A DNA stretch of 4,142 nucleotides from Candidatus Sulfobium sp. (GTDB taxonomy: Bacteria > Nitrospirota > Thermodesulfovibrionia > Thermodesulfovibrionales > UBA6898), in NCBI GenBank assembly GCA_037380845.1, contig JARRRI010000089.1, forward strand, positions 1-4,142. Reading direction: 5' to 3'. The number at the start of each line of letters is the position of its first letter. Positions within the stretch are counted from its first letter, which is position 1. The notes under the pieces were generated by a model. It saw only the letters and a list, made by a program, of their open reading frames with translations, was not told the origin of the DNA and ran no database searches. Position numbers and translations under genes: made by a program. This document shows positions 1 to 4,142 of the stretch, piece by piece.

Positions 1-49
1 CCCCTGGCCTGATATCCTATGAGGACTATCCATCCGTTAGGCACCTTCT

Positions 50-763
50 TTACCCCTGCGGTTCAATCGCCCAGAAGGGACTCTTCTTTGCTACTTCCGC
101 GACTGCGGCGAGAAAACCTTTAACATACGCCCCGCTGCGCGAAACATAGTCTTTATCCAGACGCCGCCGGAAGAAATCCAGCGAAAACAGGCCGACAAGG
201 TCCTTAAGTGCAACGATACCTCCCTCGGTTTCGGGCTGGTATCCTTTCCAGTTTTTGATGTGCTCTTCCGACCGGAAGAGGTTCATCGTGCTTCAGGCAT
301 GGGGCAGGTGTTCCATCCATTTCGAAAACGGAACTGACACATACCCCACGATCTCCTCCGGATCGGCCTTCAGGACCACCCCGTCCTTCATCTCCAGGTG
401 CATCGGTGCCCCACAGTCAAGGCAGGGGGCTTCGATTGTTACCGTCTTTCCGGGAAAAAGCCAGCAGACCGCCAGCGATTCGAAGCCTCACTCGGCGAAC
501 CACTTCTGGTGGCCGTCGATCGTGATCCTGTACTGTGTGGGGAGATTGCTGAAGGGTGCGAAACTACCTATATAGTCGGTCTCCGGAAACAGCCAGATGC
601 CCGGTATCCCCACGGACATAAGGTCGTGAAGGGCCTCTCGGGCCTCTTCGATCGGGACTTTAATCGCCGCTGCGATATCGGTATAGTGCGGGGCGCGTCC
701 CGTTGCCACCAGCCTCGTGATGATCGTATTGTACGTTTTATCCAGCACTTCTGCCTCACTCAT
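50..763 (-). CDS. merB: MerB-like (alkylmercury/organometallic lyase family) selenoprotein, 237 aa, with two in-frame UGA codons (predicted Sec92 and Sec157)
   Basis: ATG at 763-761 preceded by GGAGGAGG. The frame runs MSEAEVLDK...PFSNLPTQYRITIDGHQKWFAE-[TGA 490-488]-GFESLAVCWLFPGKTVTIEAPCLDCGAPMHLEMKDGVVLKADPEEIVGYVSVPFSKWMEHLPHA-[TGA 295-293]-STMNLFRSEEHIKNW...IEPQG-TAA (52-50). This joins track ORFs 488..862 and 50..286 in one frame. Motifs match MerB: N-terminal winged-helix-like segment, WFAEUGFESL ~ YAWC96ALD99TL, EAPCLDCGAPM ~ SSHC117AATGAPV, HAUSTMNLFRS ~ SFC159CHVHFFAS. The symbol means family membership, not proven function. Confidence 0.88.
257..287 (-). promoter_or_regulatory. Putative bacterial SECIS element for UGA 295-293 (Sec157)
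   Basis: mRNA: UGA-AGCAC-GAUG-AAC-CUCUUCC-GGUC-GGAAGAG-CA-CAUC. Perfect 7-bp upper stem plus a 4-bp lower stem. The apical loop starts with G, 19 nt after the UGA. Confidence 0.8.
460..476 (-). promoter_or_regulatory. Putative bacterial SECIS element for UGA 490-488 (Sec92)
   Basis: mRNA: UGA-GGCUUCGAAUC-GCUGGC-GGUCU-GCUGGC. 6-bp stem with two G-U pairs. The loop GGUCU starts 17 nt after the UGA and shares the C-GGUC motif of the other hairpin. Confidence 0.65.
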
Positions 764-772
764 GGCTTCTTT

Positions 773-780
773 CCTCCTCC
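773..780 (-). promoter_or_regulatory. Shine-Dalgarno site of the merB-like gene
   Basis: GGAGGAGG on the minus strand, 9 nt before the ATG at 763. This supports 763 rather than 862 as the start. Confidence 0.75.
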
Positions 781-909
781 CTCTCGTCAAGGGTTTGAAC
801 ACGGTCCGGATCAGTACCCCTCCTGCCTCTCTGAATATCCATTCTGTGCTGTTTCGTATCACGATAAAATATCATCAACTTCTGATCGCGTTGCATCCGA
901 CTTAATAGC

Positions 910-938
910 AATATAGCGCTGCAGGCCGCGACTGTCAA
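910..938 (-). promoter_or_regulatory. sigma70-type promoter for the merB-like gene
   Basis: Minus strand TTGACA (938-933), 17-nt spacer, TATATT (915-910). Implies a 5' leader of about 140 nt. Confidence 0.6.
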
Positions 939-1175: not shown

Positions 1176-1574
1176 ATGGCAAAGGCAACGAAGACAAGGC
1201 TTCTCAGCTTCGACATGAAGGACAGGCCCGGACTGCTTGCGGAGGTCACTGAGGCGCTGGCCGGAGCAAAGGTGAATGTTACGGCCCTCTGCGCATACTC
1301 ATGGGACGACACCGCATATTTCGACATGACCACGGACAGCAACGCAAAGGCCAAAAAGGCTCTGGCGGCGCTGAAGATCAAGGTCGGTGAGGGAGACGCC
1401 GTCAGTGTTGAGATAGCCAACAAGGTGGGAGAACTCCGGAAGGTGGCCGAGCTCCTCGCCGGAGGAGGGATCAACATAATTTATATGTACGGCACGGCGT
1501 CTTCGGGCAGGACGTCAACAGCGGTTATCAGCACATCGGACAACAGGAAGGCGCTGAGACTCATCAATAAGTAG
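1176..1574 (+). CDS. Tandem ACT-domain protein (stand-alone amino-acid/small-ligand-binding ACT protein), 132 aa
   Basis: Strong SD GGAGGT and ATG. Two ACT signatures: DRPGLLAEVTEALAGAKVNV and NKVGELRKVAELLAGGGINIIYMY. Size and layout resemble the Bt0572/COG4747-like two-ACT proteins. Confidence 0.88.
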   Translation: MAKATKTRLLSFDMKDRPGLLAEVTEALAGAKVNVTALCAYSWDDTAYFDMTTDSNAKAKKALAALKIKVGEGDAVSVEIANKVGELRKVAELLAGGGINIIYMYGTASSGRTSTAVISTSDNRKALRLINK

Positions 1575-2275: not shown

Positions 2276-2704
2276 ATGCAAAGAAGAGATTTCTTATCAT
2301 GGCTGCTCAAATCTGCGTGGGTGACGCTCGGTTTGGGGGGCCTTGCCACCCTGCCCTATTTCTACCACTCCCGGAAAGAAGGACCCCTGCGCTTCATTAA
2401 GGCGACGGAGGAGGAAAACATACCCAGGAGGGGAGTAAGACAGGTGGATTTTTCCTTCGCCGGCATGTCGCGCAAGGTTTTCCTCGTAAGGAAGGACAAG
2501 GAGTTTTTCGTCCTTTCCCCGACCTGCTCCCACCTTGGATGCCTTGTCAACTGGAACTACCTGAAGCATGAGTTCGACTGCCCCTGCCACGGCGGCAGGT
2601 ACGATATGGCCGGCCGCGTTATCGGGGGCCCCCCGCCCAAACCTTTGACCAGGCTGCCTTATGTGGTTAAAAAAGGCTTCCTTTACGTGGGGATGAGGAC
2701 GTAG
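2276..2704 (+). CDS. qcrA: Rieske [2Fe-2S] subunit of a Rieske/cytochrome b complex (QcrA/PetC-like)
   Basis: Twin-arginine motif QRRDFL followed by a hydrophobic anchor. Rieske boxes CSHLGC and CPCHGG, and a GPPPKPL proline loop. Confidence 0.95.
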   Translation: MQRRDFLSWLLKSAWVTLGLGGLATLPYFYHSRKEGPLRFIKATEEENIPRRGVRQVDFSFAGMSRKVFLVRKDKEFFVLSPTCSHLGCLVNWNYLKHEFDCPCHGGRYDMAGRVIGGPPPKPLTRLPYVVKKGFLYVGMRT

Positions 2705-3354
2705 TGATAGATTTCATAATAAGGCTGCTTGACCGCTGGTTTAAATTAAGGGAGCCGCACAAGAATTTTCTTGCGAGGGCGCTGCCCCCGAAGTTGAGCC
2801 CCTCCTACTGCCTCGGCGGCATGGCCTTTACGGCCTTCCTCATCTCGGCGGCCACCGGACTGCTGCTTTCCATATATTACGTCCCGTCGGCAAAAGAGGC
2901 GTATCCGAGCATAGTAATGCTCCACGATAAAGTATGGCTTGGATGGCTGATACGGAGCCTCCATAAATGGTCGGCGAATTTCCTCATAATATTCGTTCTC
3001 CTGCACGCAGTGAGGGTCTTTGTGCACAAGGCCTACAGGCCGCCGCGGGAACTCAACTGGATGGCCGGGGCCGCGGGGTTTGTCATTATAATGGTCTCCG
3101 GTTTCACCGGGTATCTGCTCCCATGGGACCAGAAGGCATACTGGGCCACCGAGGTGGGCACCGGGATGGCAAAGACAGTGCCCGGTGCGGGGGGATTCAT
3201 TCTGCGGCTGCTGCGGGGCGGGCCGGAAGTGAGCGGCGCGACGCTCGTCAGGTTCTACAGCCTGCACGCGCTGTGGGCGCCTTTCATGCTGCTTATGATA
3301 TTCTGGGCCCATTTCCACATGGTCAAAAGACAGGGGATATCGGGGGGCCTCTAG
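2704..3354 (+). CDS. petB: Cytochrome b6-like subunit (N-terminal half of a split cytochrome b; PetB/QcrB-like)
   Basis: GTG start overlaps the Rieske stop (TAGTG). YCLGG (Cys36), heme ligands His87/His101/His188/His203, GFTGYLLPWDQKAYWA motif, and C-terminus RQGISGGL similar to the cytochrome b6 end GISGPL. 216 aa. Confidence 0.95.
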   Translation: MIDFIIRLLDRWFKLREPHKNFLARALPPKLSPSYCLGGMAFTAFLISAATGLLLSIYYVPSAKEAYPSIVMLHDKVWLGWLIRSLHKWSANFLIIFVLLHAVRVFVHKAYRPPRELNWMAGAAGFVIIMVSGFTGYLLPWDQKAYWATEVGTGMAKTVPGAGGFILRLLRGGPEVSGATLVRFYSLHALWAPFMLLMIFWAHFHMVKRQGISGGL

Positions 3355-3735
3355 ATGGCAGACGGAAACGGCAAGAAAAGCCTTTACCCGGACTATCTCC
3401 CTTACGTGGCGGCGGCCCTGCTTGTGACCGTAGAGGCGGTCCTGGCGGCGGCCCTCCTGTTTCCCCCGCGCATCGGTCAGGCCATAAACCTGGCCGCGCC
3501 GTACCAGCCGAAGCCGGAGTGGTATTTCCTCTGGATTTATCAACTCCTCAGATATTTCCCCGGCGGGTATGCAATTTTTGGAACCGTCATCATACCCATA
3601 CTCCTGATCCTGGTCTTTATATTCATGCCCTATATCGACAGGGGTAAAAATGGAAGAACGAAGGCGGCCGTTGCAGCGACGGTGCTTCTCGTGCTGCTCG
3701 TGGTCCTCACTCTGATAGCGGCATTCAGGCCGTAA
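3355..3735 (+). CDS. petD: Subunit IV-like protein (C-terminal half of a split cytochrome b; PetD-like)
   Basis: Qo-site motif PKPEWYFLWIYQLLR, three hydrophobic helices, PYIDR motif. No CxxCH, so no fused cytochrome c. Confidence 0.92.
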   Translation: MADGNGKKSLYPDYLPYVAAALLVTVEAVLAAALLFPPRIGQAINLAAPYQPKPEWYFLWIYQLLRYFPGGYAIFGTVIIPILLILVFIFMPYIDRGKNGRTKAAVAATVLLVLLVVLTLIAAFRP

Positions 3736-3854
3736 AAAGAAGCCGTACCCTCGCAGGGTGAAATACCTTATCCGGAAACCCGCTGGATGTTATAAACATG
3801 CTATGGCTGAATTTTCATTAACCCTGGAATCCACCCGTCCCCCTCTCCGGAATC

Positions 3855-4085
3855 ATAACTCCCCCTTTCCCCCTCTTAACTTAAGAGGGGGTGCCGAAGG
3901 CGGGGGCGTTATTCCAAAGAGTCCCGAAAGCTTTCGGGATCTGGCAAAGGGACCTGCCTGCCGGCCGGCAGGTCCGCTGTCTGAAAACCTGGATTCTCGA
4001 TGCGAGTCCCGAAGCGGGTCTCCGCGTAGGGTCGCTACGACTTCGGTGAGAGTCGCTTCGACCCGATTATTACCTCGGGAATGAC
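3855..4085. repeat. Cluster of REP-like GC-rich palindromes (non-coding)
   Basis: CCCCCTCTTAA-C-TTAAGAGGGGG (3869-3891) inside ATAACTCCCCC/GGGGGCGTTAT (3855-3912). Perfect palindromes TCCCGAAAGCTTTCGGGA (3922-3939) and CCTGCCGGCCGGCAGG (3957-3972). CTGGATTC...CCCGA-TTATTACC-TCGGG-AATGAC (3989-4085) with an internal branched palindrome. Confidence 0.8.
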
Positions 4086-4142
4086 GAATTCGTAATGCAA
4101 TTCTTTTATACAACATCAGGGGGTTTATTAACGGCACAATCA

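Follow-up and report, generated by a model that had tools for sequence, protein, structure and literature searches.

The organomercurial lyase MerB (R831b; PDB 3F0O/3F0P/1S6L; EC 4.99.1.2) relies on two thiols and a carboxylate. In the account of its mechanism given in PMC10114901, Cys96 is the first ligand of R-Hg+ and Cys159 the second, and their binding weakens the C-Hg bond; Asp99 protonates the carbon, and Hg(II) is held on two thiolates until it is passed to MerA. The relevant sections of a 2021 survey of mer genes (PMC8261052) stress the strict conservation of MerB Cys96, Asp99 and Cys159, and these sections never mention selenocysteine (Sec, U) or truncated genes. Among the 119 prokaryotic selenoprotein families in Table 1 of a 2026 review (PMC13188914), SaoL (CU motif, one Sec) is the sole MerB-like entry, and the few two-Sec families are unrelated to MerB; a 2022 selenoprotein review has the same single MerB-like entry. 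As described in the SaoL sections of the preprint of Haft and Gwadz (bioRxiv 10.1101/2022.07.06.499078), SaoL (NF040728) has about 213 residues, holds its single Sec at the Cys159 site as part of a Cys-Sec dipeptide, keeps Cys99 and Asp102, lies in a conserved nine-gene SAO operon and is found in 45 of 52 loci and 0.3% of species. Here we report a MerB-like gene on the minus strand of a 4,142-nucleotide (nt) stretch of Candidatus Sulfobium sp. (contig JARRRI010000089.1; hereafter the window), in which an in-frame UGA codon stands at each of the two catalytic thiol positions. It belongs to a distinct, widespread subfamily of MerB-superfamily selenoproteins with Sec at both catalytic positions, Glu in place of Asp, two selenocysteine insertion sequence (SECIS) elements and no operon partners.

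Direct translation of the minus strand from 763 to 50, with TGA read as U, gave 237 residues followed by TAA, and the only non-standard steps were U92 and U157. The gene starts at an ATG (763-761). Under table 11 the frame breaks into open reading frames (ORFs) 488..862 and 50..286, and the middle piece is unlisted. An earlier note on this DNA had described a single frame that is uninterrupted but for the TGAs of codons 92 and 157, with which the translation agrees. It had also expected standard pipelines to deliver fragments, and this is what table 11 and the databases, which keep the family in pieces, have done. For comparison, we scanned the contigs of one genome per species, which gave at least 600 pattern matches, of which at least 570 encode a relative; the best 80 of these relatives, each from a different species genome, form the locus set (L numbers). 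The 120 listed database proteins (P numbers) form the protein set, and the window, the loci and the proteins together give a family set of 201 rows. The window translation with Cys in place of Sec (P0001) was used for the family searches. Alignment A2 holds 82 close-family sequences and was also the basis of the AlphaFold2 model and of the PDB profile search. From residue 1 through at least residue 228, 72 of the 80 loci align with the window gene. A GGAGG-like purine-rich stretch upstream of the gene is also present in L001-L003. The features of the gene, in the window numbering used throughout, are as follows.

910..938, minus strand: promoter-like TTGACA-17-TATATT, 11 of 12 matches, about 147 nt 5' of the ATG (consensus scan, a pattern match only)
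772..780, minus strand: Shine-Dalgarno-like GGGAGGAGG, 8 nt 5' of the ATG (read from the sequence)
50..763, minus strand: complete coding sequence of the predicted MerB-like double selenoprotein, 237 codons plus TAA (52-50) (translation with TGA as U; Pfam MerB; colinear with 72 loci)
554..763, minus strand: N-terminal helical (winged-helix-like) domain, residues 1-70 (NCBIfam MerB model aligning from residue 12; model helices; Foldseek)
194..553, minus strand: MerB catalytic core, residues 71-190 (Pfam PF03243; alignments to MerB2 5c17 and MerB 3f2g/1s6l)
488..490, minus strand: TGA codon 92, almost certainly read as Sec, equivalent to MerB Cys96 (translation and HMMER alignments)
479..481, minus strand: codon of Glu95, equivalent to MerB Asp99, the proton donor (HMMER alignments; invariant in 82 of 82, A2)
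460..476, minus strand: SECIS 1, a stem of 6 bp, GCUGGC/GCUGGC, around the loop GGUCU, beginning 11 nt 3' of UGA92 (fold, pairing, synonymous entropy, bacterial SECIS criteria)
413..424, minus strand: Cys114-x-x-Cys117 motif, Cys114 being equivalent to MerB Cys117 (both Cys invariant in 82 of 82, A2)
293..295, minus strand: TGA codon 157, almost certainly read as Sec, equivalent to MerB Cys159 (translation and HMMER alignments)
258..286, minus strand: SECIS 2, a 7-bp stem CUCUUCC/GGAAGAG with loop GGUC and a 3-bp outer helix, 12 nt after UGA157 (fold, pairing, synonymous entropy)
53..193, minus strand: C-terminal helical extension, residues 191-237, ending in a conserved PFW (AlphaFold2 model; Trp231 invariant)

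Pfam MerB (PF03243) matched residues 71-190 with 77.9 bits against a gathering score of 27 (E 8.5e-22), which bears out the MerB homology proposed in the earlier note. When the PDB was searched with the single sequence, MerB2 (5c17) was matched at E 3.4e-8 and plasmid MerB (3f2g, 1s6l) at E 0.006-0.045; the 82-member profile improved these matches to 7.5e-12 for MerB2 and 6e-5 for MerB. The AlphaFold2 model had a mean predicted local distance difference test score of 95.0 and a predicted template-modelling score of 0.90. Compared with the PDB by Foldseek, it gave 11 matches at E<=0.001, all of which were MerB or MerB2, and the next match had E 0.5. The template-modelling scores of the MerB and MerB2 matches were 0.58-0.66 when normalised to the target and 0.49-0.58 when normalised to the query. 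HMMER alignments pair U92 with Cys96, Glu95 with Asp99, Cys114 with Cys117 and U157 with Cys159 of MerB; in the local blocks, faeC/yawC puts U92 on Cys96 and phaCs/sfCc puts U157 on Cys159. UGA, almost certainly encoding Sec, the selenium analogue of Cys, occupies both MerB catalytic thiol positions, at which relatives have Cys. The manual alignment in the earlier note was thus reproduced, with TGA at the Cys96 and Cys159 positions; to be added to it is that the Asp99 position is Glu here.

Nine residues are invariant in all 82 sequences of A2: Glu95, Cys114, Cys117, Met160, Phe163, Arg164, Ser165, His168 and Trp231. The helices of the N-terminal domain in the model span residues 3-21, 27-34 and 38-50, and Foldseek matched this domain weakly to winged-helix proteins. 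Those of the C-terminal extension span 186-192, 196-199 and 206-225; the MerB alignments stop near residue 190-201, and the extension is uncovered by MerB structures. In the NCBIfam release of June 2026, the SaoL model NF040728 scored 39.6 bits against a cut-off of 140, and no model claimed the window protein, every curated cut-off being missed. Of the family models named in the earlier note, Pfam MerB lies above its cut-off and SaoL below. Scores under the NCBIfam cut-offs, combined with the Pfam and fold matches, place the window protein in the MerB superfamily but outside both the MerB and the SaoL equivalogs.

The window protein shares with MerB the Pfam family, the fold, the aligned catalytic positions and the N-terminal helical domain. 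Unlike MerB, it has Sec for both catalytic Cys and Glu for Asp99, an extra Cys117 that completes the CxxC motif, and about 45 additional C-terminal residues; the neighbouring Cys160 of MerB is missing (A-U-S). MerB lies with mer genes, whereas none is linked to the window gene (147 flanking ORFs, longest per side within 1.5 kb). MerB2 of Bacillus megaterium (PDB 5C17) is the best sequence match among solved structures and also departs from Asp at the Asp99 position; it differs in having Ser there, Cys at both catalytic sites and a mercury-resistance context, as set out in the MerB2 passages of PMC10114901. SaoL, as far as the cited sections of its preprint describe it, is likewise an anaerobe MerB homologue with Sec at the Cys159-equivalent site, is cut at that UGA in databases, and has been proposed to have a role beyond classical mercury resistance. 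In contrast to SaoL, the window protein carries a second Sec, has Glu where SaoL has Asp and lacks conserved neighbours, and the CU dipeptide is replaced by His-Ala-Sec-Ser, the residue before Sec157 being Ala in 65 of 73 sequences. SaoL occurs in 0.3% of species, whereas relatives of the window protein occur in at least 570 species genomes. Two known two-Sec families also have two Sec per chain, presumed to be soft-metal ligands; they are unrelated, the NCBIfam scan gave no match of either of their models to the window protein at E<=1, and their Sec residues lie close in sequence (UxxU, CU), whereas those of the window protein are 65 residues apart and are joined by the fold.

A double-Sec MerB family is missing from the inventory of 119 families in PMC13188914, and in the literature we found SaoL as the sole MerB-like selenoprotein and no description of a double-Sec MerB homologue, within a scope that excluded the BSepDB web tables, bioRxiv supplements and Haft and Tolstoy 2025. 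The text of the GOS paper (PMC2398784) has no mention of MerB. The main text and supplement of Kivenson 2021 contain no MerB or "mercur" term, SaoL not being among the terms searched for there; those of the BSepDB paper contain no MerB or SaoL term and its main text no "mercur" term, the supplement having been searched for "lyase" rather than "mercur". MerB-like selenoproteins are already known from SaoL, as the earlier note had said and the SaoL sections of the preprint bear out; the double-Sec form is what is new within the literature covered.

We next consider the reading of the two UGA codons. The codon pair at 92/157 is TGA/TGA in 76 of the 80 loci, TGC/TGA in three (L012, L014 and L054) and TGA/GTA in one (L028); position by position, codon 92 is TGA in 77 loci and TGC in 3, and codon 157 is TGA in 79. 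Across the 201 family rows the states are U/U (77), W/W (53), Cys followed by a stop at 157 (62), C/U (3), C/C (3) and others (3), so that Cys stands at position 92 in 68 rows. Full-length P0030, P0054 and P0100, as well as more distant full-length relatives, have Cys at position 157. The 120 database proteins comprise 53 full-length entries bearing Trp at the two Sec positions, 62 that have Cys92 and end exactly before position 157, three that are Cys/Cys (P0030, P0054, P0100) and two odd cases (P0053, W/P; P0084, Ser92). L009 (TGA/TGA) stands beside P0005 (W/W) as a near-identical pair on the tree, L054 (TGC/TGA) and P0048 (Cys, 156 residues) do not differ in any compared column, and L014 adjoins P0051. 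These near-identical pairs of locus and protein indicate that the database W and the early end both represent TGA. Trp at the Sec sites is probably an artefact of gene callers picking code 4 on short metagenome contigs. It recurs in P0002-P0019 and others, as a systematic mistranslation in public protein sets.

The same cuts appear on a larger scale. A search of 1.84 billion cluster representatives gave 1367 matches at E<=0.001, many of which are pieces of about 90-91 residues (profile 1-90), 155 residues, 63 residues (93-155) and 74-77 residues (159-232); these sizes indicate a gene cut at its two UGAs in the databases. Conservation meanwhile runs across both codons: the amino-acid identity between the window and 72 loci is 0.64 in the segment up to U92, 0.67 in that between U92 and U157 and 0.57 in the last segment, and there are just two insertion columns across 73 sequences. 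The homologue comparison suggested in the earlier note accordingly showed codon 92 to be TGA or TGC and codon 157 to be TGA or Cys, with conservation through the TGAs. Features expected of bacterial selenoproteins are present, namely Cys/Sec pairing and UGA-containing homologues in other organisms that are conserved on both sides of the UGA. The host taxa of the family are among those described as the Sec-richest known in the taxon surveys of PMC9312934 and PMC13188914. Both UGAs are almost certainly read as Sec, and we hold with high confidence that the gene encodes a genuine double selenoprotein of MerB fold.

A hairpin after each TGA, as the earlier note had proposed, was found at both sites. 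Bacterial SECIS (bSECIS) criteria, as given in the legend of Fig. 2 of PMC13188914, are a loop of 3-9 nt with G in its two opening positions, a stem of 4-16 bp, a distance of 16-37 nt from the UGA and a minimum free energy of -7.5 kcal/mol or lower. SECIS 1 falls within all four ranges with a 5-nt loop starting with GG, 6 bp, 17 nt spacing and -7.9 kcal/mol, and its stem has two G-U pairs. SECIS 2 does so with a 4-nt loop starting with GG, 7 bp, 19 nt spacing and -13.6 kcal/mol in 46 nt (z -3.3; 0 of 200 shuffles as stable). Its GGUC loop, we presume, resembles that of the E. coli fdhF SECIS. Rfam gave 0 matches in the window at E<=1. The SECIS 1 hairpin (460-476, minus strand) is followed by UUUUU and was also scored as an intrinsic-terminator-like site within the coding sequence.

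Synonymous codon use was analysed in 73 aligned genes (the window and 72 loci) as normalised entropy over 212 codons; L003, which has a third U in the aligned span, and L015, L028, L040, L054, L055, L056 and L072, whose alignments are incomplete, were left out. The mean entropy was 0.81, and there were only two deep minima, at codons 95-100 (0.26) and at codons 158-167 (0.14, the lowest of the gene). Both sit just 3' of a TGA, over the hairpins. The locked codons are Ser96 TCG (66 of 67), Leu162 CTC (67 of 68), Arg164 CGG (72 of 73) and Ser165 TCG (73 of 73), while six-fold and four-fold codons neighbouring them vary freely. The stem of SECIS 1 is paired in 99.4% of 480 cells (80 distinct sequences) and that of SECIS 2 in 97.0% of 770 cells. 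This evolutionary constraint is the decisive evidence for both SECIS elements.

The species genomes with a relative number at least 570 and are mostly those of anaerobic Thermodesulfobacteriota, with Nitrospirota and other phyla in addition. FastTree was run on the 201 rows using alignment positions 1-156 without position 92. The closest relatives of the window gene are L002 and L001 (Candidatus Sulfobium, Nitrospirota) and L003, all U/U, followed by P0020, which is 85% identical to the window protein and has Cys92. Cys and Sec interchange at position 92 at least 20 times on the tree, at least 14 of these changes being forced by well-supported branches; label shuffles gave a mean of 57 changes, and 0 of 500 were as low as observed. 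A supported clade of 144 rows contains 124 with Sec92 and 19 with Cys92, and the deeper groups are Cys92 with Sec157. Position 157, as read from the codons, is nearly always Sec; at position 92 Sec and Cys replace each other. In full-length relatives further away (20-38% identity), Cys fills both positions, and residue 95 is Glu, Asp or Ser; several distant forms of 150-160 residues likewise end just before position 157.

The gene is intact and under purifying selection. A MerB-like gene killed by two nonsense mutations would explain why table 11 reads two stops and why public databases keep the family as fragments of about 91, 63, 75 and 155 residues. The same TGA pair, however, recurs in 76 of the 80 species genomes, indels are almost lacking, amino-acid identity stays at 57-67% in all three segments, Cys codons alternate with TGA at both positions, and the constraint on synonymous sites falls exactly 3' of each TGA; we regard such a pseudogene as extremely improbable and dropped it as a candidate on the shared TGA pair, the continuing conservation and the constrained synonymous sites. 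The judgement of the earlier note that chance nonsense mutations are implausible stands on the same recurrence of TGA at both aligned codons. Another reading takes TGA as a Trp or Gly sense codon (code 4 or 25) with no Sec, to which the W at both positions in 53 of 120 database proteins would point. Against it, TGA terminates 133 of the 297 ORFs of at least 300 residues in the loci and the window, that is, TGA is an ordinary stop in the same loci, which removes an alternative code; moreover, the W-bearing proteins are near-identical to TGA loci from genomes to which the standard code was applied, relatives in genomic TGY or Cys forms have Cys and never Trp at the aligned site, and a dedicated hairpin follows each TGA. 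We give this reading next to no credence.

Taken as a whole, the observations are probably best explained by an intact, translated double-Sec gene of MerB fold, driven by its SECIS elements and carrying out MerB-like organometal chemistry. SelB with Sec-tRNA(Sec) would bind each hairpin, so that Sec is inserted and termination does not occur. An organometal cation such as CH3Hg+ would be bound in turn by the two selenolates, weakening the metal-carbon bond, and Glu95 would protonate the leaving carbon, so that the hydrocarbon is released and the metal is left on the diselenolate; by homology, the U92/E95/U157 triad would carry out protonolysis as in MerB. Selenolates, being ionised at neutral pH and softer ligands, should favour the capture of trace organomercury and the activation of its bond. 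Since no merA or other mer gene is linked, the bound metal would have to leave by another route, and exchange with Cys114-x-x-Cys117, low-molecular thiols or sulfide are speculative candidates. Alternatively, and equally speculatively, the protein might turn over slowly or only once, or act as a trap. We put the chance that the protein is an organometal, most likely organomercurial, lyase at slightly better than even.

Several observations weigh against this account. Identity to solved MerB structures is only 18-21% (Foldseek), and the MerB Asp99 position is Glu95 here, which keeps the carboxylate but is not Asp. The NCBIfam MerB equivalogs lie far below their cut-offs (PRK13239, of the NF009710/NF033555 pair, 43.3 against 193; lyase_MerB, 35.2 against 200). 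Given the great strength of the Hg-Se bond, product release from a diselenolate poses a real mechanistic problem. No mer, heavy-metal-associated, HgcA/B or SAO Pfam component was found in the window or in the 147 nearest flanking ORFs, a scan (E<=1e-8 or 1e-10) restricted to the longest ORF on either side within 1.5 kb, which could miss small genes; the context thus gives no support for mercury as the substrate. SECIS 1 alone is no stabler than shuffled sequences (z +0.3 and -0.4; 119 and 72 of 200 equal it). Covariation was of no use, with two-sided changes in 0 pairs of SECIS 1 and in 1 pair (4 cells) of SECIS 2; it is uninformative because the stems are nearly invariant, and synonymous sites were therefore analysed instead. 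Finally, three of the 201 rows are exceptions to the Cys/Sec rule: L028 with GTA157, P0053 with Pro157 and P0084 with Ser92. These may be decayed copies or assembly errors. L028 (GTA at 6469-6471) aligns from residue 24 onward, and P0053 is 181 residues long.

Several of these points would fit a double selenoprotein of MerB fold that is not an organomercurial lyase and serves instead in binding or trafficking of soft metals (Hg, Cu, Cd, As), as a low-potential diselenide/selenol redox pair, or in the cleavage of other organometal or organometalloid compounds. The stand-alone context without mer genes, the scores under the MerB equivalog cut-offs, the Glu at the Asp99 position, and the extra invariant CxxC and C-terminal extension, both missing from MerB structures, all lean this way. 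The MerB site can also bind other metals, the D99S variant binding Cu(II), according to the metal-binding passages of PMC10114901 and of the Haft and Gwadz preprint, and most selenoproteins are redox proteins (PMC13188914). The catalytic layout is nevertheless kept in full: a thiol or selenol at i is followed by a carboxylate at i+3 and, about 63-65 residues on, by another thiol or selenol. All 82 sequences of A2 have Glu95, a carboxylate for which a pure binding or redox site would have no need, and the fold matches MerB enzymes only (Foldseek). We consider a function other than organomercurial cleavage less likely, yet a serious rival, as the context gives no hint of the metal.

The MerB-like gene stands alone, and even close relatives have it in different surroundings. 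DNA similarity to the closest locus, L001, is 88% and is confined to window positions 47-834 (L001 2806-3595); the flanks are unalignable. In L006, an IS110-family transposase adjoins the MerB-like gene. The unalignable flanks, the differing neighbours and this transposase suggest that a one-gene unit has been moved often by relocation or horizontal transfer. An all-against-all comparison of 2680 flanking ORFs, with fragments and overlapping frames of the MerB-like gene itself set aside, gave as the largest neighbour cluster a response regulator with a cyclase domain (10 of 80 loci), followed by an acyl-CoA dehydrogenase (8 of 80). The search for an operon clue was dropped, as no neighbour family is shared by more than 10 loci out of 80; the Pfam content of the 147 flanking ORFs reflects miscellaneous, unrelated housekeeping functions. 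Synteny with the window was dropped as well, the ACT, Rieske, cytochrome b and subunit IV proteins having no tblastn match in the 80 loci. A putative SelD beside the gene in L004 proved to be PurL. In the sub-clade of L008 (4188-4919), L014 (4273-5001) and L028 (4269-5069), an upstream DUF1573 protein of the OS_HP2 family scored 82 bits against an NCBIfam cut-off of 100; the OS_HP2 family is known to include selenoproteins. The other genes of the window, assigned by Pfam and NCBIfam, are the following.

1176-1574, plus strand: protein with two ACT domains, 132 residues, divergent from the MerB-like gene
2276-2704, plus strand: Rieske 2Fe-2S protein
2704-3354, plus strand: cytochrome b6
3355-3735, plus strand: subunit IV-like protein

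The protein with two ACT domains has no counterpart beside the family in any of the 80 loci. Start and stop codons overlap or abut in the operon of Rieske, cytochrome b6 and subunit IV-like genes (2276-3735). Its cytochrome b scored 227.5 bits on ExtP, a b-type cytochrome of a selenite/tellurite reduction operon (cut-off 290), and its subunit IV-like protein 25.5 on ExtQ (cut-off 150); neither gives an assignment. The 700 nt between the ACT gene and this operon (1575-2275) hold only an ORF of 89 codons (1902-2171), to which Pfam gave no match, and, at 1848-1871, an 11-nt inverted repeat without mismatch. Short perfect or near-perfect palindromes are dense at 3839-4096 (e.g., 3869-3891, 3922-3939, 3950-3975 and 4010-4060), a stretch without a convincing gene and with no Rfam match; they may represent repeat elements, terminator-like elements or a small RNA.

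Provided that the gene is translated as read here, both metal-ligating catalytic Cys of MerB are replaced by Sec, 65 residues apart, each needing its own SECIS, and the result would be a natural diselenol version of the MerB active site. A selone mimic of the MerB site cleaves C-Hg bonds, according to the section of PMC10114901 on such mimics. As described in the demethylation passages of the same review, the strains and pathways of anaerobic, mer-independent methylmercury demethylation are uncharacterised, and the corresponding part of PMC8261052 states that how MerB works without MerA is unknown. A tentative and unlikely proposal is that the family supplies the so far missing enzyme by which anaerobes demethylate methylmercury independently of mer, a diselenol C-Hg lyase that would need no MerA; its selenolates would capture and cleave methylmercury at environmental trace levels and hand Hg(II) to sulfide or thiols. 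Gene callers cut the gene at its UGAs, and merB surveys would therefore have missed the family. Mercury methylation is usually attributed to sulfate reducers, syntrophs and Nitrospirota, guilds in which the family would occur. Because the family is kept as fragments or Trp-bearing proteins, surveys of mercury-cycling genes would undercount or mis-score it, and its annotation needs a model that reads through both UGAs. The MerB-like gene offers a concrete, clonable candidate for anaerobic mer-independent demethylation.

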